From a virus (Duplodnaviria > Caudoviricetes), in IMG/VR virus record IMGVR_UViG_3300035204_001725, positions 366 through 64,365 of that record: a stretch of 64,000 nt of DNA. One strand, written 5' to 3'. Every line of letters starts with the position of its first letter. Positions within the stretch are counted from its first letter, which is position 1. The translations under genes were made by a program, and so were the position numbers. The notes beneath the pieces are model-generated. The model saw only the letters and a list, made by a program, of their open reading frames with translations. It did no database searches and was not told where the DNA came from. Of the stretch, positions 1,732 through 31,673 are shown one piece after another.

Positions 1732-2549
1732 AAATAGACATAGCAATGAACTTTAATGATCTAATTCCACCAACAGGTCATTCTATGGCCATGTGGAATA
1801 AGCCTCCGTATTATGAACAGTTGTTATCTTTAATAAAATCAATAAAATTAAATTGGGACAAGCAAGTTTATGATTATTCTATATATGTTTATTATTCAAG
1901 AGATCTAGCTAGAGAAAAAATAGAAGAACTACGATCACTGGGATGTCATACAGTTTTTAACCCAAGTGAAATTCAACCATACTTTAATAGAGAAAACGTA
2001 TTTTCGCATCAAACCGATGGGGATTTTACATTAAACCTAGATACAGATATGCTTGTTCTTAATACCCCCTCTTTAAGCTTTGAGCATGAAGTATTAATGA
2101 AACCAGCAGGGCACTCCGCAATGTCGCACGATAAATGGAGGATTGCGTCAGAAAAACTAGGAATAAAGCATGACCCGCGATCGTATCATCATTTTAACGG
2201 GGGGTGCATGCTAATTAAAAATGATTGTAAAAAAGTACTATACGACTGGTATGTGGACCCAGAGAACCTAAAGATACTAAGACTATTAGAAAAGTATGAC
2301 CGTCACTTTTCAGAGCAATTTTATTATAGCATCTTAATTAGAAGATTAGATTGGGGAATCTTAAATAAAAGGGTAAACGCTTATTCCGACTCTTTTGGAG
2401 AATATAGTTTAGACATGCCTGTAGATATCTTACATTATTTAGGGAAAAATGGCTATAACGAAAAGGTGGAGTCTTTAATTAAAGAAGTAGTGAGGGGTTA
2501 TATCTTGAACAGTCGAACCACAAAATCCAGAGGTTTTAATGTTGCATAA
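1728..2549 (+). CDS. GT-A fold glycosyltransferase (GT8-like)
   Basis: LDTDM DxD motif, FNGG, EQ and ILHY motifs in GT8 order. Confidence 0.65.
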   Translation: MKIDIAMNFNDLIPPTGHSMAMWNKPPYYEQLLSLIKSIKLNWDKQVYDYSIYVYYSRDLAREKIEELRSLGCHTVFNPSEIQPYFNRENVFSHQTDGDFTLNLDTDMLVLNTPSLSFEHEVLMKPAGHSAMSHDKWRIASEKLGIKHDPRSYHHFNGGCMLIKNDCKKVLYDWYVDPENLKILRLLEKYDRHFSEQFYYSILIRRLDWGILNKRVNAYSDSFGEYSLDMPVDILHYLGKNGYNEKVESLIKEVVRGYILNSRTTKSRGFNVA

Positions 2550-3168
2550 TCCTTATAAAGCGGTAAGGATGTTTGAAGAAGAAATCGCTTCTTATACTGG
2601 TGCACCGTATGCGATCTCCGTAGATAGCTGTACAAATGCTTTATTTCTTTGCTGTAAGTATTTAAAGGCCAAAGAGGTCACTATACCCAGCAAAACGTAT
2701 CTTTCTGTGCCTATGAGCATTATTCATTCGGGCGGAGAAGTCGTTTTCGATAAATCAAAAGAAACGAACAGTTGGTCAGGAACTTATCAACTTAAGCCTT
2801 ATCCAATATATGATGCAGCAAAGAAACTAACCTCTAACATGTATATAGAGGGTACTTTTATGTGCCTGTCTTTTCACATAAAGAAGCTCTTACCCATAGG
2901 AAAAGGAGGTATGATACTCACAGATAACGAAGGAGCCGTAGAGTGGTTTAAAAGAGCTAGGTATGAAGGTCGAAGTGAAAAATTTTACAAAGAGGATAGC
3001 GTAGAGAGTTTGGGGTGGAATATGTATATGACTCCCGAGCAAGCAGTGCGTGGATTAGCGCTTTTTCAGAATTACCCAGAGTACCAAAAAGACTTGGGCG
3101 AACCCGGAGGGTATAGAGACCTAACGGAATTCCCAGTATTTAAAAATTGTAAAATAATTCAATCATGA
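2539..3168 (+). CDS. DegT/DnrJ/EryC1/StrS-family sugar aminotransferase (short form)
   Basis: FEEEIASYTGAPYAISVDSCTNAL, YDAA and LSFHIKKLLPIGKGGMILTD (PLP-lysine loop). Confidence 0.85.
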   Translation: MLHNPYKAVRMFEEEIASYTGAPYAISVDSCTNALFLCCKYLKAKEVTIPSKTYLSVPMSIIHSGGEVVFDKSKETNSWSGTYQLKPYPIYDAAKKLTSNMYIEGTFMCLSFHIKKLLPIGKGGMILTDNEGAVEWFKRARYEGRSEKFYKEDSVESLGWNMYMTPEQAVRGLALFQNYPEYQKDLGEPGGYRDLTEFPVFKNCKIIQS

Positions 3169-3839
3169 CAAATAGTGAAGAAGATAGAGGATCATGGGCT
3201 CGATCGACGCCGAGAGAGTATGTCTTACCCGACGGAATGAGAACAAGATTCTATAACCCCCAGCCCTATGACGAAAGCGGAGATACGACCCTGTTTAGGA
3301 CCTTAGAGTGGCATCAAGAAAATGTTATTCCATTAATTCAACAAAATCTCACTAGTCGAAAATCAGTGTTGGATTTAGGCTGTGGAAATGGGAGATATAA
3401 TAAATTAACTCACGGAATATTTGAAAATATACTATGCGTTGACCCCATAGAAACTATGGATGAAAAATTTACATTTAGTAACACAAAATTTGAGAGAACA
3501 CACCTTCATGAACTACAGGGTAAATTCGATAACATATTAATGATCGGGCCTATGTGTGCTATATGGAAAAAATACGGGGAGGACACCATGAGATATTTGC
3601 ACTCCTTATTAAATAAAAACGGCTTGGTCTTTATGGAAATCGATGAAGCGAGCCCGTGCTCTTTTAAGCGATGGAACGCTCGCGGTCAGTCGCCCGTGTT
3701 TCATCCGGTCTTTGAATACCGACCTCCCGACGGGTGTTCTGGTCGATACAAACCAGTTATTAAATCCGAAGGATATCATTTCACAGCCAAGCAATATGAT
3801 TTATATCGGACGACCTTGGTCGTTTGGGAAAGTAAATGA
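3165..3839 (+). CDS. Class I SAM-dependent methyltransferase
   Basis: VLDLGCGNG motif I, FDNI motif and LL.KNG post-motif. Confidence 0.8.
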   Translation: MTNSEEDRGSWARSTPREYVLPDGMRTRFYNPQPYDESGDTTLFRTLEWHQENVIPLIQQNLTSRKSVLDLGCGNGRYNKLTHGIFENILCVDPIETMDEKFTFSNTKFERTHLHELQGKFDNILMIGPMCAIWKKYGEDTMRYLHSLLNKNGLVFMEIDEASPCSFKRWNARGQSPVFHPVFEYRPPDGCSGRYKPVIKSEGYHFTAKQYDLYRTTLVVWESK

Positions 3840-4519
3840 AAGCATCTAAAGAGCTCCTTAGTAAAACGTTAAGTATCTCCAAGTGGGTTGCGGCCAACAT
3901 GCATGGAAGGGACGAAGCGGAATTTAAAAGGATTTATCACTGTGATCATCACATAGCGCTATACATAAAAGACTATGTAATGAAGGAGCAGTGTAAAACC
4001 TATTTTGAAATAGGCGCGCATTTTGGGCATAGTATATGTACGCTCTTACAGAGTCAATACAAATCAAATTTTATTACTTGTGATTTATTTGATTCGGGGG
4101 CATCTAATTTTTATACCAACAAAAACGTTCAGCATTTTAACTCACACAATTATAATTGTGAGATCATTAAAGCCAACTCTAATGAAGAAGGAACAAGAGA
4201 TTTAGTAAATGACTCTTGTCCAGACGGAATAGATTTACTTTTTATAGACGGTGATCACAGGTATTGGGGTGTGACTAAAGATTTCCAGCTTTATTTTCCT
4301 TTGGTAAATTCAGGGGGGTATATAGTATTCGATGATTATTTACCCTTTTCTTGGAAAGGTAAAGAAAGAGAATGTCCGGTAGCCATTAGGGACATTATAA
4401 AAAAACACGAAGACGAACTAGAGATCATGGGTGAAGCAAAAAGTATTGATCCAGACGACTCTCTCGGCGGCACGGAGTCTATCAGGGACAATACTGCGTT
4501 TATAGTTAAAAAGAAATGA
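3836..4519 (+). CDS. SAM-dependent methyltransferase (Methyltransf_24-like)
   Basis: EIGAHFGHS, IDLLFIDGDH.Y and GGYIVFDDY motifs. Confidence 0.85.
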   Translation: MKASKELLSKTLSISKWVAANMHGRDEAEFKRIYHCDHHIALYIKDYVMKEQCKTYFEIGAHFGHSICTLLQSQYKSNFITCDLFDSGASNFYTNKNVQHFNSHNYNCEIIKANSNEEGTRDLVNDSCPDGIDLLFIDGDHRYWGVTKDFQLYFPLVNSGGYIVFDDYLPFSWKGKERECPVAIRDIIKKHEDELEIMGEAKSIDPDDSLGGTESIRDNTAFIVKKK

Positions 4520-25204: not shown

Positions 25205-26326
25205 ATGAAATTAAAGTTAAAAAATACTCCAGAACAGGTAGAATTAATTAAGGCCCTTGGCTCTAAAGATCAATTTATCTCTTCAGAAGCGGCTTCCGCT
25301 TTTGCAGCATTTATTGGCCCCGTGATCTCCAAGGTCATTTCTACAGCTGGAACAGCTAATCTTATTTTTAGCGACGTAGAGTACGATGAAGATGATAGCC
25401 CAAGCTATCCGCTTGATTTATTCTATGATGAAAAGGAGGGTTATGTAACCACTTGGTCACAGAATCTTGCTGGTGGTATGCCGACCTCGCAAGTCGAGGG
25501 CGTCAAAGAAATGAAGATTGCTACCTATCGTCTCGATAGCGCAGTAAGCTTCATGAAAAAGTATGCTCGCAAGAGTCGTCTTGATGTAATCAGCAAGGCT
25601 CTTGAGCGTATGGCACAGGAAATTCTTGTTAAGCAAGAAAGAAACGGCTGGGCTGTTGTACTTAAGGCTCTTGCCGAGTCCAGCACTTCCCATTCATCTG
25701 GTAAAGATGACTGTCACGTCCTTGCTTCTGATACGCAAGGCAGCTTTGTTGTCAACGACATGAGCAGGTTGTTAACCCTCATGAGGCGCTTAAGCACCTC
25801 TTGGTCGGGTCACACCCCTTCTGGCGGTGACTCTTATGGACTTACCGACTTGTTCGTAAGCCCCGAGATTAAGCAACAGATTCGTGGTTTTGCTTACAAT
25901 TCCATGAATGCCGGAAATGACTACGCCACGCTTCCCGATGGAACCAGACAAGGAATTTATAATTCCGCTGGCACCAACGAGATCTACGGCGTGAGAATTA
26001 CTGACCTCCTTGAGCTTGGTACGTCTAAAAAGTATAACATACTCTTTAACGACTTCAGCCCCAAGAGTGTCGGTCATACTGGTGCTTCTGGTAATGCTCA
26101 AAGCGATCCGTTCTCAACTTCGGCTGACGAACTTTTGATCGGTTTAGATGCTTCTCGCGAAGCGTTTATCCGTCCTGTCGCTCGTCAGAATGACAGTGGT
26201 GGAACCTTTAGTGCATTGCCTGATGATCAATTCGCTGCTCGTGCTGACAAGACCGGTTTTTACGGTTTCTTGGAAGAGGGCCGCGTTTGCATCGACGCAA
26301 AAGCTATCGTTGGCATGGTTGTCTAA
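25205..26326 (+). CDS. Major capsid protein
   Basis: 373 aa, AGGAG RBS, follows protease-scaffold and decoration genes, ends at a strong terminator; spine-helix-like RLDVISKALERMAQEILVKQE. Confidence 0.8.
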   Translation: MKLKLKNTPEQVELIKALGSKDQFISSEAASAFAAFIGPVISKVISTAGTANLIFSDVEYDEDDSPSYPLDLFYDEKEGYVTTWSQNLAGGMPTSQVEGVKEMKIATYRLDSAVSFMKKYARKSRLDVISKALERMAQEILVKQERNGWAVVLKALAESSTSHSSGKDDCHVLASDTQGSFVVNDMSRLLTLMRRLSTSWSGHTPSGGDSYGLTDLFVSPEIKQQIRGFAYNSMNAGNDYATLPDGTRQGIYNSAGTNEIYGVRITDLLELGTSKKYNILFNDFSPKSVGHTGASGNAQSDPFSTSADELLIGLDASREAFIRPVARQNDSGGTFSALPDDQFAARADKTGFYGFLEEGRVCIDAKAIVGMVV

Positions 26327-26425: not shown

Positions 26426-27931
26426 ATGGCTAGGAACAAATACAAAAGCGAGCCAAGGCCCGAAGAGAAGCCCAAGGGGTATTTACAGATAGAAAAGAAT
26501 TTCAGCGTTCCCCTGTCTAAGACTCCTTATTTAAACGATGAGGGAGTTTTGTCCGTAGAAAATATAGAAGAAAGGACCAGTAGTGACTTGTCCTTTCAGT
26601 ACGATAAGAAGAACGAGTCTTTTCTTTTTGCTAAAAACCTAGATACAAATACTGAAGTCCAATACGTTCCGAAGTATGTAGACAAAGTCTATAAAACGAA
26701 AGTATCTTTCAAAGGCGAAATAAAAGAGGCCTTTGCTGTTTATAGAAACGAAGTGAAAAGGTTTATTATTGAAGAACTGGATCGATATACCTGTCTACCC
26801 AAAGCGCACAAAAAAGAGATAGATACCATTTTGAAAGCGAAAAATCAGTATATTTTTACTGAAGATATCGGAGGAATGAACTGGAATAAAGTATATATTG
26901 ACGCCACCTCTTTTGGCCCTTATAATTATGACGTTAATCTTTATGTGTCAAAAGATATAGAAATGATTAACGATTTAATTGTTGTAAAGACCGGATATTT
27001 TGACGCAGTAACGGCCCTACCGAGCGGAGGGAAACACGTAGCTTGGGTCTCTTCTCACGACGCGGTATCTTATTCGGACCCGACGATGTACCATTCCACT
27101 GGGTATTGGTATACCAACAGGGCGACGGGTGATTATATTGATAGCCCTTACGCTTCTGGCGCGACCTCTTTTAATAGAAATTTCGGAGTAACAAATACAG
27201 GTATTACAAATGCACTGACTTCTAAATTTAATATTATCGCTAAAGGGCAGAACCTGTATAGCGGAACTAGATATACTAATACAGTAAATGGTTTTGGTTA
27301 CGAAAGGCAAAATCCATTAATTGATGATTTCTCATATGTTTATGAAGAAAGCGGAAGGTATAGAACTACGTTTAACGATGTGGGCTGGAATGGTGTGATT
27401 CCTTCTGGGGTTCCATTTTCCATAGAGACTTGGTCTACAAATCCTAGATATATTGGTTTTGATGGAGAAATTACTATTAAACCAACCGGAGTTAACGATC
27501 CAACTTGTACTTATTCTGCCACAATTGAAGGGACGGCTCAATCTAAAGATTACCAAAAATCAATTAGGTACGCAATGGCTGCAGCAAAGAAAAAGTTTTA
27601 TAAAAATTTAAATAAAATTTTAATACAAAAAGGTATAAAAAAGAAAAATTCTAGAATTACAAGGTACGAAAAAATGCTAGAAAGAGTGGCTCAAAATGTT
27701 TATGATGGTCTCACCGTGGTCAGAAATGAGAATATAGCAAAAACACAAGGGCTTGAGTCTAATCCGTTGGACTCTCCGGTATACTATGACGGGACGGCAA
27801 AGATGTACGATGGAGACAACTCTACGTCTTTGTATGATGCTAACAAGACTCGCGCATATAGACTAGAATCGGGCTCTGCGGCGCAATCACAAACAAGTAG
27901 TAGTAGCAGTAGCAGCGGAGGGAGTTATTAA
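26426..27931 (+). CDS. Hypothetical (probable virion) protein
   Basis: 501-aa ORF in the structural region, with a Ser-rich tail ending SSSSSSSGGSY. Confidence 0.6.
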   Translation: MARNKYKSEPRPEEKPKGYLQIEKNFSVPLSKTPYLNDEGVLSVENIEERTSSDLSFQYDKKNESFLFAKNLDTNTEVQYVPKYVDKVYKTKVSFKGEIKEAFAVYRNEVKRFIIEELDRYTCLPKAHKKEIDTILKAKNQYIFTEDIGGMNWNKVYIDATSFGPYNYDVNLYVSKDIEMINDLIVVKTGYFDAVTALPSGGKHVAWVSSHDAVSYSDPTMYHSTGYWYTNRATGDYIDSPYASGATSFNRNFGVTNTGITNALTSKFNIIAKGQNLYSGTRYTNTVNGFGYERQNPLIDDFSYVYEESGRYRTTFNDVGWNGVIPSGVPFSIETWSTNPRYIGFDGEITIKPTGVNDPTCTYSATIEGTAQSKDYQKSIRYAMAAAKKKFYKNLNKILIQKGIKKKNSRITRYEKMLERVAQNVYDGLTVVRNENIAKTQGLESNPLDSPVYYDGTAKMYDGDNSTSLYDANKTRAYRLESGSAAQSQTSSSSSSSGGSY

Positions 27932-27934
27932 ATT

Positions 27935-29437
27935 ATGAGCAGTTATAAGCCGCCCGTTAGGAGCAATAAGATAAATAGGAACTTTCAAATAAAAGTACAT
28001 TTGTACTTTAACCCTAATTCTTTTAATAGATCTACAGATCCAACGCCGAGGTTTTATTTGGCGCCCATAGAGCTGTTACATGTAGAAGACGCGGCTTTTT
28101 CAGATAAAGCAGAAGAAAACGGGTATGTTAGGTATGCGAATAACTATTGGAGATATAAGGACAACACCTCCCTGTCAGAGTCTGAAGTTTTATCTATTTA
28201 CGAAAAAATAAAAACTAGTTATCCGTATGGATATATAACAAATGACCCAGCGTCTATTAATAAATATATTGCTGACGTAAAAGAAAATGAAGGCTTTCAG
28301 TCCTTTTATAAAAAATATTGGGAAAATAACTCGGCAAAAATTATCGAGCCAAGTTTCGCCTCAGACGGAACAAAGGAATATCCTTATTCATATATAGAAT
28401 TTACAATAAACGAAATTGTTACTCAAAAATATACGGTGGGCACCGTTCCAGCCCTAGAAGATGGTTTAACAACTGCCGCGGAGTATGGAACAGGCACAAT
28501 TTATTCAGAGCCAAGTATGTGGGCTTGTAACGACGACATTATTCAAGTCGGAACAAACGGTACAAGATTTTCTGTGCAAGGTATTCCTCATTACTCATTA
28601 AAACTTCAAACTAGCGGAAAATATAGAATTGATTTAATGTCAGATCTTGAAGGCTATAATTCAATGTACGTATGGCCCACGGGAGGGTCTTATGGCGGTT
28701 ATAGCGGTTATAGATTTAGACTAAGCACCGGGATAGATGGTAGTCACAATGGGTTTTCTGATTATACGAACGGAGTAAGCTACATCGAGACGCCTGAAGT
28801 AGGTAATTTTTTTACGAAAGTTATTCCAAAAACTAGCTATTTGGGCGGCAACGACGATACACACCCATATTATTATAGCGGAAGCTCAGATGGTTTTGGT
28901 TTAAGCGGGAGTGGGTCGGGAACGCTAGCAACGGGTATTAATATTAGCGGCTTTGGATATGATGAGGCCCCGCTTCTTACTTTAAGAAAACGCTCAACTT
29001 ATTACTTTAATCAATATGACAGTTCTAACGTTGGGCATCCCTTGTATATAAGCACTCATCCGTCTGGTCAGGGTTCTCACCTATACACCTCCGGTGTTAC
29101 ACATCATTTTTTTGGGGGAGACACTGTTTTAGGGGGCTCCTATTTACCCGGGACAACGGGTTACCACGTTAAATTTACGGTACCCGAAGACGCGCCGAGT
29201 ACGCTTTATTACGGTTGTCTCAATCATGCGTATATGGGGGGGCAAATTAACATTATAAGTGATCAGCCTCCCGCGTCTTACACGGGAAGTATTCCGCAAG
29301 AAAGTATCCTTATAGATTTAAGCAGTAACACAGAGGAAAAGACGATACATTACTACTCTCCTGACGTATCAGGTATGGGCGGAAGAGTTTTTATCAAAAA
29401 TGACTGCTCGGATGACGTTTTGTTTGCGAATTATTAG
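27935..29437 (+). CDS. Probable virion protein with cupredoxin-like repeat(s)
   Basis: LTLRKRSTYYF.Q...N.GHPL...VP.DAPSTLYYGCLNHAYMGGQINI, plus a degenerate second copy (YYSPDVSGMGGRVFI). Confidence 0.6.
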   Translation: MSSYKPPVRSNKINRNFQIKVHLYFNPNSFNRSTDPTPRFYLAPIELLHVEDAAFSDKAEENGYVRYANNYWRYKDNTSLSESEVLSIYEKIKTSYPYGYITNDPASINKYIADVKENEGFQSFYKKYWENNSAKIIEPSFASDGTKEYPYSYIEFTINEIVTQKYTVGTVPALEDGLTTAAEYGTGTIYSEPSMWACNDDIIQVGTNGTRFSVQGIPHYSLKLQTSGKYRIDLMSDLEGYNSMYVWPTGGSYGGYSGYRFRLSTGIDGSHNGFSDYTNGVSYIETPEVGNFFTKVIPKTSYLGGNDDTHPYYYSGSSDGFGLSGSGSGTLATGINISGFGYDEAPLLTLRKRSTYYFNQYDSSNVGHPLYISTHPSGQGSHLYTSGVTHHFFGGDTVLGGSYLPGTTGYHVKFTVPEDAPSTLYYGCLNHAYMGGQINIISDQPPASYTGSIPQESILIDLSSNTEEKTIHYYSPDVSGMGGRVFIKNDCSDDVLFANY

Positions 29438-29444
29438 AATTTAT

Positions 29445-29473
29445 TTGACTTAAATAATTTAATACTGTATAAT
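29445..29473 (+). promoter_or_regulatory. Near-consensus sigma70 promoter for the ribozyme transcript
   Basis: TTGACT (29445-29450), 17 nt, TATAAT (29468-29473); predicts a start near 29479-29481. Confidence 0.85.
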
Positions 29474-29479
29474 ATAATA

Positions 29480-29701
29480 GATTTAAATCGGCCTTATTGG
29501 GTGAATTCGGTAGAACTCTCTCGTAGACAATACCGAGCCAAGTCGGAAGTGGGCTTAGTGCTTCCGAAGGGTGTAGAGACTAGAGGGTGAGTCCCAACAA
29601 TAACCCCTCCACGAGCGCCCAACACCGAAAGGTGAAGATATAGTCCGAACTGTATGGCGACATACAGAAGTCGTAATTAAAAAAGCGACGGTAACATATT
29701 G
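29480..29701 (+). ncRNA. ORF-less group I intron ribozyme (IA-like), lacking an upstream 5' exon
   Basis: P3 TTGGGTG 29497-503 / CGCCCAA 29616-22; P4 TTCGGT 29506-11 / ACCGAG 29532-37; P6a TCGGAAG/CTTCCGA; P7 GACTA 29578-82 / TAGTC 29641-45; P7.1 GAGGG/CCCTC; P8 CACC-GAAA-GGTG; J8/7 AAGATA; P9 CTGTATG-GCGA-CATACAG; P9.1 GTCGT/GCGAC; omega-G 29701. Confidence 0.93.
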
Positions 29702-29777
29702 GATTACGTGATTGGTGCAGTGTACTAACTAGGGACCATGCAGTTTCTAGCCAAGTAAACTAAATTGCGTGTCGGCT
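29702..29777 (+). ncRNA. Predicted 76-nt circular RNA product (exon of the permuted intron)
   Basis: Bounded by omega-G 29701 and U29777; the predicted junction GGCU|GAUU pairs 8/8 with IGS AAUCGGCC, with the U-G wobble at the splice site; folds by hand into a rod. Confidence 0.7.
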
Positions 29778-29794
29778 GAACCCCAATTAATATT

Positions 29795-30181
29795 ATGGCT
29801 AAAAAAAAGAAAAGCGCGAAAGCGTCAAAGAAAAAGGTAGAACTAAAAGAGATGGATCAAACCGATGGAATGGACCAGACCGAAAAGAAGTTTCAATCCT
29901 CTACGTTGGATCAAGTGTGGGGAGATGATGGAACCTCTCAGTACAGGACCATGGACGCTGAAGTTTATGAAAAGGTTATTCATAACATGTCTAAAGCCGA
30001 CTTGAAAGCAGAAGCAATTAGGGTTGGACTATTGCCTATTGATAATGTTGATCAGCTTGTAATTAGGCTGGTTAGGCAATTTAATTCACACGTGTCCGCA
30101 TATAAAATGCCTCTTGATCAACAAAAAAAGGGGATGACTCTAAGTGAAGAGTCTATGAAAATTCTGGGAGAAGGTAAATAA
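29795..30181 (+). CDS. Hypothetical protein with a Lys-rich N-terminus
   Basis: 128-aa ORF starting 18 nt after the predicted 5' splice site. Confidence 0.7.
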   Translation: MAKKKKSAKASKKKVELKEMDQTDGMDQTEKKFQSSTLDQVWGDDGTSQYRTMDAEVYEKVIHNMSKADLKAEAIRVGLLPIDNVDQLVIRLVRQFNSHVSAYKMPLDQQKKGMTLSEESMKILGEGK

Positions 30182-30204
30182 TTTCTCAATAACCTAAGCA
30201 ACGA

Positions 30205-30215
30205 GTGTAATATCT
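30205..30215 (+). promoter_or_regulatory. Putative phage late promoter (GTGTAATATCT)
   Basis: Recurrent motif upstream of ATG 30226. Confidence 0.55.
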
Positions 30216-30225
30216 ATATGGTATT

Positions 30226-30585
30226 ATGGCACTCGTTAATTACAATTTAGACATTATTCAGGGCTCTACTTTTTCCGCCCAACTTATTGCGAAAAACGCT
30301 GATGGTACAGCCGTCAATTTAACTGACTATTCAGTTAGGGGCGTTATGAAATATAATTACGGCACGGGTGTGTCCCTGCTTAACTTAAACCCTTCTGTAA
30401 ATACAACCTCTCCGAACACTGCTGCGAGCGGTGTCATTGATGTAAGCATATCCGCTGCGGCTGCATCAGCCTTACCTGTTACCGTGGGCGTCTATGATAT
30501 AGAAATGTATAACAACAACGAAACCGAGGTTAAGAAACTGCTTGACGGTAGAATTAAGGTATATCCGGAAGTCACCAATATTTAA
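30226..30585 (+). CDS. BppU-like Ig-fold structural protein
   Basis: I.QGSTF...G.AVNLTDY...G.I....GVYDIEM...KLL.G.I.V.PEVT pattern. Confidence 0.7.
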   Translation: MALVNYNLDIIQGSTFSAQLIAKNADGTAVNLTDYSVRGVMKYNYGTGVSLLNLNPSVNTTSPNTAASGVIDVSISAAAASALPVTVGVYDIEMYNNNETEVKKLLDGRIKVYPEVTNI

Positions 30586-30590
30586 AGTGA

Positions 30591-31673
30591 ATGCCGAACG
30601 ATCCACAAAAAATTAATGTAGTCATATCTGGCAGTCCAGACGCGCAGGTAGTTTACCCTAGTGCGAATACAATTAATTTAAACCAAACTTCGAGCACGGT
30701 TAACGTTACGCAGTCCTCTTCTTCGTCGTCTGTATCGTCCACTCCAGAGTCTAATATAAATGTAGGCTTCATGGGTATTCAGGGTATAGCTGGAAGCGCT
30801 GTCACCGCTCCGGGAGCAGCTTTAGACGGAGAAGTATTATATAACGAAAATGGTTATGTTTCTGGTGCTCGGGGGTTCTTTTATAATAAAGGTGCGAGTG
30901 AAATTAAAATAAGCGGAAATAATTTACTGTTGACTAGTGGGAGCACGGCTGTTTTATCTGGAACGACTGACGAAAGTGCGTTCTTACTTAGAGATGCTAA
31001 CGCAGACCTACTCAAGGTTGATACTAAAAATAAAAAAATATTATTATCAAATAATACTTCATCAACTCAATACCGGATAGGAATTGGAGGGGATACGCCT
31101 CGGGAAAAAGTACATATATCAGGTGGCAACTTAAGGGTAGATGGAAACATGTTAGTAAGTGGCAATATTCTTCCCCTAAAGAGCGGTGAATTTAATTTGG
31201 GCTCTCCCACTTTTCCGTTCAAGGACGTATATCTTCATGGAGATAGTATTGTTTTCGTTGATAAAGACTCAAAGATAACCGCGTCAAATACAGGCTTTTC
31301 TTTTCAGGTTACTAACGCTGAAGGGGTGACTAGGGAAATAGGTTCAATTACAACAGAAAACGTGGGGATATTTAAAGGTGACGGCTCGGGATTAACTGGG
31401 GTTAAATATAGCGGTTTACAGGACGCTGGAGCATTTATACAACAAGTAGTACCAAGCGGATCAGAAAAGGTAACCGTTGACTATGGTAAAACTTTGAATT
31501 ATGACCCCGCCGTTATATGCGCTCTTACCTCGCCCACGGGCAATAACAATGCTTATTTTACACATGTAGAAAGCATTTCTAGAACCGGCTGTAAGGCCCT
31601 TTTTAGTGAAAATATTGACGGAAATGGATTTATCTTAAATTCTCACATTTCTCCCATAAACCCAGTATTTTAA
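30591..31673 (+). CDS. Tail fibre-like protein
   Basis: IGIG..TP.EK.H.SGGNLRVDG and ILP....FNLGS....KDVYL fibre motifs. Confidence 0.65.
   Translation: MPNDPQKINVVISGSPDAQVVYPSANTINLNQTSSTVNVTQSSSSSSVSSTPESNINVGFMGIQGIAGSAVTAPGAALDGEVLYNENGYVSGARGFFYNKGASEIKISGNNLLLTSGSTAVLSGTTDESAFLLRDANADLLKVDTKNKKILLSNNTSSTQYRIGIGGDTPREKVHISGGNLRVDGNMLVSGNILPLKSGEFNLGSPTFPFKDVYLHGDSIVFVDKDSKITASNTGFSFQVTNAEGVTREIGSITTENVGIFKGDGSGLTGVKYSGLQDAGAFIQQVVPSGSEKVTVDYGKTLNYDPAVICALTSPTGNNNAYFTHVESISRTGCKALFSENIDGNGFILNSHISPINPVF

Follow-up and report, generated by a model that had tools for sequence, protein, structure and literature searches.

A candidate guide-first group I ribozyme in a phage mRNA leader and its predicted 76-nt RNA circle

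Described systems and the phage locus

In textbooks, group I ribozymes figure as selfish introns, and their natural re-use for other jobs is, to our knowledge, rare. Here we compare the closest described systems with a group I element found in an IMG/VR phage record of 64,365 bases (IMGVR_UViG_3300035204_001725, estimated to be 42% complete); the stretch analysed, which is called the window throughout (64,000 nt), is nearly the whole of that record. The element is housed on the plus strand in a gap of 357 nt between two open reading frames (ORFs), 27935-29437 and 29795-30181, the second of which encodes a Lys-rich protein. An earlier note on this DNA had described it as a group I ribozyme that lacks a 5' exon and whose guide has its target 3' of the ribozyme's own omega-G, and this central claim is supported by covariation between guide and target, by a promoter-like element and by homology with an ordinary intron, locus L237.

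The layout is that of the Tetrahymena self-targeting and splicing (STS) system engineered in 2023, which has the same topology and makes circles in vitro with the P1 pairing alone (PMC10457212). As described there, the guide stands at the 5' end of an intact ribozyme and is followed by the RNA to be circularised and then by the target site, and two transesterifications cleave behind the target U and link this U to the nucleotide that follows omega-G (PMC10457212). Guide, intact core, omega-G, insert and target U are all found in the phage element in this arrangement, which may be said to work like STS, the comparison denoting a way of working and not a natural family. Further ribozyme-first designs related to STS reportedly exist. 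The engineered system is man-made, T7-driven and based on the Tetrahymena IC1 ribozyme, with a long cargo (PMC10457212), whereas the phage element is natural, has P7.1 and no P2, carries a conserved rod of 75-80 nt as its cargo and has an mRNA that continues behind the target.

The earlier note knew of no natural group I example of this kind. One is in print, the coral (corallimorpharian) mitochondrial intron ND5-717, which back-splices naturally (Chi et al. 2019, PMC6545197), but it is of the split-intron type, unlike the phage element. ND5-717 is split in P8, and its halves flank exons that code for ND5 (the permuted intron-exon, or PIE, type); a circle of 2.1 kb arises as an intermediate, and the permutation comes from transcribing a circular genome (PMC6545197). 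The phage core, in contrast, is contiguous, and its predicted circle is small and non-coding; the ribozyme is not split in a peripheral loop with its 3' half upstream and its 5' half downstream of the exons, as it is in engineered td/Anabaena PIE constructs, and solely the substrate strand of P1 has been relocated. A full-text literature search (Creative Commons articles in PMC, and bioRxiv) returned no natural permuted group I case from a phage or a bacterium. Natural circularly permuted group II introns are known in bacteria (Roth et al. 2021, PMC8637638). They resemble the phage element in being free-standing, in interrupting no ORF and in giving small RNA circles of unknown function, and differ from it in belonging to another class of ribozyme, which branches, and in not abutting an ORF, whereas the phage element always precedes one gene (PMC8637638). 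No group II family of Rfam matched in the window.

A group I-type fold shapes the leader or 5' end of an mRNA in the lariat-capping ribozyme (GIR1). In Clostridioides difficile, an mRNA leader reportedly contains a group I ribozyme under allosteric control by c-di-GMP (Lee et al. 2010). Both resemble the phage element in using a group I-type fold to shape the leader or 5' end of the mRNA that follows, and not to repair a gene; GIR1 differs in that it branches and does not carry out ordinary splicing, and the C. difficile ribozyme in that it has an upstream 5' exon and an aptamer. Neither GIR1 nor the c-di-GMP-II allosteric ribozyme, for both of which the Rfam library presumably holds models, had a match of its own at gathering score in the window. 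GIR1 is also described in the report on permuted group II introns (PMC8637638).

The same RF00028 sequence subfamily and the same core are found in ordinary phage introns, namely L237 and those of the H101 type (L002, L005 and L006). These, however, have their 5' splice site and P1 hairpin upstream of the guide, interrupt protein genes and in some cases carry endonuclease ORFs.

The group I core, its guide and the site behind omega-G

From the comparisons that follow, we consider it likely that the 5' leader of a phage mRNA here contains a group I ribozyme of the guide-first (topologically permuted) kind, which would cut the transcript 17 nt before the start codon and probably ligate a circle of 76 nt. 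The comparative set consisted of viral (IMG/VR) and marine metagenome contigs. Fifty-four loci were examined, of which 15 were cut by contig ends; the 39 full copies gave 35 distinct sequences, and 33 relatives remained after two loci with other layouts (L222 and L237) had been excluded. All 33 have the same order of parts: an AT-rich upstream stretch, the guide, the core, UUG↓G (arrows mark splice sites), an insert of 75-80 nt, GG(C/U)U↓(A/G)(A/G), a short leader and the ORF of the Lys-rich protein.

The RF00028 covariance model matches 29446-29667 on the plus strand over its full length (model positions 1-253), with 64.0 bits against a gathering score of 50 and an E-value of 6.5e-14. This is the sole Rfam match at gathering score in the 64-kb window, and a scan of the whole record agrees. 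The core is contiguous from P3 to P9.1, without P2, and its helices were verified on the sequence (Table 1), which bears out the group I core with omega-G at 29701 that had been read from the letters before; its subgroup we take to be the phage IA type with P7.1. Over the 33 relatives, the core helices (helices 2-11 of the alignment) are 97-100% paired, the P3/P7 pseudoknot core is present, and compensatory changes occur in seven helices (P3, P4, P6a, P7.1, P8, P9 and P9.1). P7 is invariant and therefore uninformative on covariation, and J8/7 is invariant as well. These observations bear on the idea that the element is a decaying, inactive orphan intron left after the loss of its host gene. 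Such a relic would be expected to have neither an endonuclease ORF nor an interrupted gene, as is the case here, but 33 diverged copies keep each core helix through compensatory changes, P7, J8/7 and omega-G do not vary, and a relic would not maintain the complementarity of guide and target set out below; we regard decay as highly improbable.

Both ends of the ribozyme are anchored by L237 (~3050-4180, reverse strand of the locus), the nearest ordinary intron found, which is P2-less, interrupts an HK97-type capsid gene and has in P8 an open frame of 274 codons, the size of an endonuclease. The 5' splice site of L237, GAGGGU↓, pairs with the guide GCUCUC, which lies 6 nt before P3 (3 nt in the window). 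L237 shares the core and P9.1 with the phage element, and its 3' end, AUAACAnnUUG↓GAU, joins the frame of the capsid protein in register; the end AUAACAUAAUUG↓GAU restores the reading frame. By this homology, both the position of the guide and the first G of UUGG as omega-G are supported in the window, where the terminal omega-G falls at the same end as the true 3' splice site of L237. L237 could resemble the ancestor of the permuted form.

The partner of the guide lies behind omega-G. UCGGCC (29488-29493) pairs with GGCU↓GA (29774-29779), the U29777·G29490 wobble included, as the earlier note had proposed, and the pairing persists in the relatives. In alignment A2 of the 33 sequences, P1 (columns 7-12 with 343-348) is paired in 99% of cells; the U·G wobble at the splice site is kept in every sequence, with the substrate strand 3' of the core, and in 31 of the 33 all six guide nucleotides are complementary to the homologous downstream site, 75-80 nt past omega-G. 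Two pairs covary. The second exon pair is G-C in 24 sequences, A-U in 8 and mispaired in one (L231), and just beyond the splice site the first pair is U-A 26 times, C-G 4 times (window included) and U-G 3 times. On an unsupported, midpoint-rooted FastTree of the core, made without the P1 columns, the GACC~GGUU state occurs in two separate clades and the UC~GA state is scattered, a distribution that suggests repeated compensatory switches. The predicted P1 between the guide and the site behind omega-G is in this sense shown by covariation, and the failure of the downstream site to covary with the guide, named beforehand as an outcome that would speak against the proposal, did not occur. For the structure as a whole (83 pairs), 91.3% of cells are paired, versus 80.8% in shuffles (none of 500 reached the observed value) and 37-39.5% when the partners are slid by 1-3 columns, and 46 of the 83 pairs show changes on both sides. 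P10 is likewise present as complementarity where it had been placed, since AAUC (29486-29489) can pair with GAUU (29702-29705). A second candidate target, GGCU↓AA at 29796-29801, overlaps the start-codon region of ORF 29795; it was rejected, having an A·C mismatch to the guide and no conservation in the relatives.

The guide might instead act in trans, and cut other phage or host RNA that contains GGCU or GGUU, or splice the 76-nt RNA onto it. It stands at or near the 5' end, would be unpaired until its target is transcribed, and would again be free on the ribozyme released after the reaction. A guide of 4-6 nt, however, has little specificity, a trans target elsewhere would not explain the covariation of the cis target with the guide, and the closing stem of the insert ties that cis target to the 3' splice site; action in trans thus seems to us very improbable.

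The reading of a guide-first ribozyme further predicts that no 5' exon precedes the guide. The promoter-like site there is the best of eight in 27500-31000, the other seven scoring 9/12, although the number of such sites is not above that in shuffles (8.4 +/- 2.7). It agrees with the TTGACT-17-TATAAT promoter that the earlier note put ahead of the guide, with a score of 11/12, and a similar element is found across the relatives; from its position, transcription would start near 29480, ~7 nt before the guide. Of the 33 relatives, 23 have a -35/-10 pair of at least 9/12, spaced by 16-18 nt, immediately ahead of the guide; the hexamers are conserved and the spacer sequences differ. In the window's clade, the pair scores 10-12/12 and the -10 ends 7-18 nt ahead of the guide, so near to it that there is no room for a 5' exon and a P1 hairpin. 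The absence of a 5' exon also holds when a site for the guide is sought further away: within up to 294 nt upstream, a 6-nt match to the guide is found in 4 of the 33 relatives, at scattered and unconserved positions, and the window has none.

On the plus strand of 29438-29794 no ORF of at least 40 aa was found, in keeping with the earlier statement that there is neither an endonuclease ORF nor an interrupted gene, and complete ORFs flank the ribozyme on both sides, so that no gene is interrupted. An upstream 5' splice site and rejoined exons of a split gene, the marks of an intron in the strict sense, are not seen. Because no upstream site is conserved and complete ORFs lie on either side, the element counts as a group I ribozyme and not as a gene's intron. 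An ordinary cis-splicing intron would need its 5' exon in ORF 27935-29437 or in the 3' untranslated region of that ORF, and a short 3' exon. The close relatives of the core are indeed ordinary introns in split genes (L002/L005/L006, L003, L004, L009 and L237), and no terminator was seen between the upstream ORF and the ribozyme. We nevertheless consider cis-splicing extremely improbable, in view of the scarcity of guide-pairing sites upstream, of the upstream ORF having its own stop in the relatives and of the upstream genes differing between clades, of the stops that all three frames meet within 20 codons after 29701, and of the mere 7-9 nt from the -10 to the guide hexamer in several relatives, which is too short for a P1 hairpin.

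Table 1. Coordinates of the element, its helices and the gene behind it in the window.
Feature	Coordinates	Strand	Remark
Promoter-like TTGACT-17-TATAAT	29445..29473	+	11/12
Internal guide sequence	29486..29493	+	P1 strand UCGGCC at 29488-29493, with G29490 in the wobble pair
Group I catalytic core	29494..29700	+	RF00028, 64 bits; helices 97-100% paired, n=33
P3	29497-29503/29616-29622	+	checked base by base
P4	29507-12/29531-36	+	checked base by base
P5	29517-19/29525-27	+	checked base by base
P6	29537-39/29570-72	+	checked base by base
P6a	29543-49/29561-67	+	checked base by base
P7	29578-82/29641-45	+	checked base by base
P7.1	29583-87/29605-09	+	checked base by base
P8	29623-26/29631-34	+	checked base by base
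P9	29650-56/29661-67	+	checked base by base
P9.1	29670-73/29686-89	+	checked base by base
Omega-G	29701	+	3' splice site between 29701 and 29702; UUG↓G invariant, 33/33
Structured RNA between 3' and 5' splice sites, predicted circular product	29702..29777	+	76 nt; folds as rod
P1 target GGCU↓GA	29774..29779	+	5' splice site between U29777 and G29778
Leader left on the mRNA after predicted cleavage, plus one added G	29778..29794	+	17 nt; distance from splice site to ATG
Gene of the Lys-rich protein	29795..30181	+	128 aa; always the gene behind the element

The 76-nt RNA and the proposed reaction

The RNA between the two splice sites keeps its length within 75-80 nt in all 33 relatives (75 nt in 3, 76 in 19, 77 in 2, 78 in 1, 79 in 4 and 80 in 4). 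Its closing stem begins at the first nucleotide of the insert and ends 4 nt ahead of the 5' splice site. The exon stem of 12 bp proposed earlier (29705-29716/29759-29771) is real, but its register was slightly off, as covariation places 29702-29704 against 29771-29773 and 29706-29713 against 29763-29770. In the closing stem (helix 12 of the alignment), 10 of 11 pairs change on both sides over the 33 sequences. When the 14 sequences with the window's insert type are folded by RNAalifold, 27 pairs form a rod in which 18 pairs show compensatory changes and conserved unpaired nucleotides also occur. A closing stem of 13 pairs, 7 of which are compensatory, is shared by the remaining 19 sequences, whose interiors differ. 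Because the first three nucleotides of the insert pair with the three just before GGCU, the ligated junction would sit in a GGCU tetraloop. Resemblance to known RNAs was considered and dismissed: ARAGORN found no tRNA, permuted or otherwise, Rfam gave no match on 29690-29800 at E up to 10, and the junction loop is not a 7-nt anticodon-like loop, since the actual loop has 4 nt on an 11-pair stem.

The reaction of the guide-first ribozyme can be pictured as follows. Transcription would start a few nucleotides before the guide, as the promoter-like site suggests, and would leave no 5' exon. The contiguous core would fold with omega-G at 29701, followed by the 76-nt rod, whose closing stem would unite both splice sites, and the tail GGCU (29774-29777) would pair with the guide as P1, with the wobble U29777·G29490, a step for which covariation speaks directly. 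By group I chemistry, an exogenous G would then attack after U29777 and free the mRNA with a leader of 17 nt plus one G. In the second step, the 3'-OH of U29777 would attack the bond between omega-G and G29702, giving the 76-nt circle with its junction in the GGCU tetraloop and releasing a linear ribozyme. If it reacts as predicted, the ribozyme must also cut the mRNA of the Lys-rich protein free, because the element stands in the leader of that same gene in 33 of 33 relatives. The formation of a circle, and with it the domestication of a group I intron to make a circular RNA (circRNA) that the earlier note proposed, would follow from this scheme.

The invariant omega-G and the fixed length of the insert favour a real second step, and the unvarying place of the element ahead of a single gene speaks for a role in the mRNA of that gene; circle as purpose and leader trimming as purpose may both hold. 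A leader ribozyme that only cleaves would account for part of this. The G cut would define a short 5' end of the mRNA, the second step would be inefficient or irrelevant, and the 76-nt RNA would be a clamp or a peripheral domain. Agreement with such an enzyme can be seen in the location of the element, always 2-41 nt ahead of the same start codon, in a P10 of only 2-5 bp, in the division of the insert interior into several sequence types while the ribozyme is conserved, and in the conserved unpaired nucleotides of the insert, which could be tertiary contacts. Cleavage alone, however, does not require the insert to stay within 75-80 nt, all 33 relatives keep UUG↓G at the 3' splice site unchanged, the closing stem sets the 3'-OH of the cut exon beside omega-G, and P1 is the only pairing that engineered constructs with this topology need to form circles (PMC10457212). 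We judge that a purely cleaving ribozyme is unlikely, although it deserves to be taken seriously.

Several points weigh against a guide-first ribozyme that makes circles. The case for P1 is one of 33 relatives and not of the match in the window, where 6-nt sites that can pair with the guide occur three times in the ~900 nt scanned, so that taken alone the match is weak evidence. In the relatives, variation is confined to two of the six P1 pairs, P1 is broken in two sequences (L231, with GGAU, and L248, with a distal A·A), and the independent switches of guide and target are small in number and read from the FastTree described above. P10 is short and competes with the closing stem of the insert, and the conserved unpaired nucleotides of the 76-nt RNA could make tertiary contacts that serve the ribozyme and not a free circle. 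On the promoter side, 10 of the 33 relatives have promoter-like scores of only 7-8/12; in L236, L254 and L262 just 2 nt separate the guide from the end of the best sigma-70-like -10, and a start 7 nt later would delete the guide, and in L228 an ORF runs up to the guide with no clear promoter. Transcript start, cleavage and circle are, in addition, all deduced from sequence.

More tentatively, selection may have favoured the circle itself, a rod-shaped, exonuclease-proof RNA of 75-80 nt with conserved loop nucleotides. Late in infection it would build up and serve as a decoy, sponge or packaging cofactor that acts on a protein of the host or the phage, perhaps in concert with the basic protein encoded next to it; we hold this to be possible, though somewhat less probable than its opposite. 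Were the circle what is selected, the element would be the first natural dedicated circRNA generator of group I origin among viruses and bacteria, and nature's equivalent of the self-targeting circRNA systems that have been engineered. If the guide-first ribozyme works as proposed, phages would have reached the self-targeting design that RNA engineers published in 2023, and kept it long enough for guide and target to change together more than once. They would also provide, beside permuted group II introns, a second class of natural ribozymes of the prokaryotic world that make small RNA circles, as well as a ribozyme-based route to setting mRNA 5' ends in phages and compact natural circRNA scaffolds (a ribozyme of ~215 nt, no P2, a 4-nt scar). 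The role of a conserved 76-nt RNA ring during infection would then become a directly testable question.

The Lys-rich gene, distribution and neighbouring features

The earlier note had called the element stand-alone, and this description has to be given up, as all 33 relatives have the element in the leader of one and the same Lys-rich gene, with 2-41 nt between the 5' splice site and the first ATG. The Lys-rich protein belongs to no family in Pfam or PHROGs; its single Pfam row, TCL1_MTCP1, reaches 16.6 bits versus a cut-off of 25 and was counted as chance. In the Atlas it falls among clusters of hypothetical viral proteins, and its helix-rich C-terminal part has a single weak structural match (TM 0.40), to a SAP-domain cluster. 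Alignment A1 of the protein contains an invariant motif, LDQVWGDDG. The protein may bind nucleic acid and belong to the virion or serve in packaging.

Pattern scans of IMG/VR led to the syntenic relatives L007, L008, L016, L025 and L154, and for one of the patterns nearly all the matches listed were other group I introns. Single-protein searches of viral contigs with both flanking ORFs returned no relatives, whereas alignment A1 as the query gave 57 syntenic loci in viral contigs, and the family profile found the ribozyme upstream of the Lys-rich gene in 6 of them. One metagenome scan added 47 stretches. In 13 of 14 ribozyme-less loci that were read, the end of an ORF is followed by a stem-loop with a U run, a short intergenic stretch and then the Lys-rich gene, and 12 of these 13 ORF ends resemble the end of the capsid-like ORF 25205-26326 of the window; L173 and L208, also without a ribozyme, have other ORF ends, and L208 has no terminator. 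Since the ribozyme-less loci place the same gene directly after an ORF end and terminator, the cassette appears to occupy the leader of that gene. Judging from these comparisons, a sub-lineage of marine phages has inherited the element at this site; the genes upstream differ between clades of relatives, and the upstream ORF has its own stop.

A scan of genome contigs with the family pattern returned no stretch, and hence neither a prophage copy nor a clue to the host. Among GenBank phages, no match was longer than 10% of the 601-nt query; they share short stretches of the core only, within ordinary gene-splitting introns (in tape-measure, primase/helicase and H101 genes), and P3-P6 is 91.5% identical to Pseudoalteromonas phage H101 over 47 nt. 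DNA contigs from four runs (X2, X4, X8 and X14) show no joints over 29400-29850, as expected for DNA, and are silent on splicing. In the same runs, contig depth over the core (29480-29700) is up to ~20x that of the flanks, and the contigs break in the core, their loose ends leading to other guide and insert variants, some unlike the 33. Many related copies seem to coexist within single marine samples.

In the window, the capsid-like ORF is separated from the stretch of the Lys-rich gene by two 500-aa ORFs, 26426-27931 and 27935-29437, the latter with a tail-fibre-like stretch (PHROGs). The loci that carry the ribozyme have assorted extra genes between the capsid-like ORF and the Lys-rich gene. 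ARAGORN found no tRNA in the window.

Two further arrangements were noted. In Pseudoalteromonas phage H101 (L002, KR534323.1), three tandem group I matches of 66, 54.5 and 80 bits, none of them annotated in that entry, occupy ~1 kb (2453-3418) between an unannotated gene end and an HNH endonuclease gene. In L222 (~2790-3105), the same P7-P9.1 is combined with another guide (AGGCC), and ~16 nt separate the omega-G-like position from GGGU; this locus lies between ORFs of 930 and 1184 aa and not ahead of the Lys-rich gene, and may represent a mini-insert or a cleavage-only variant.

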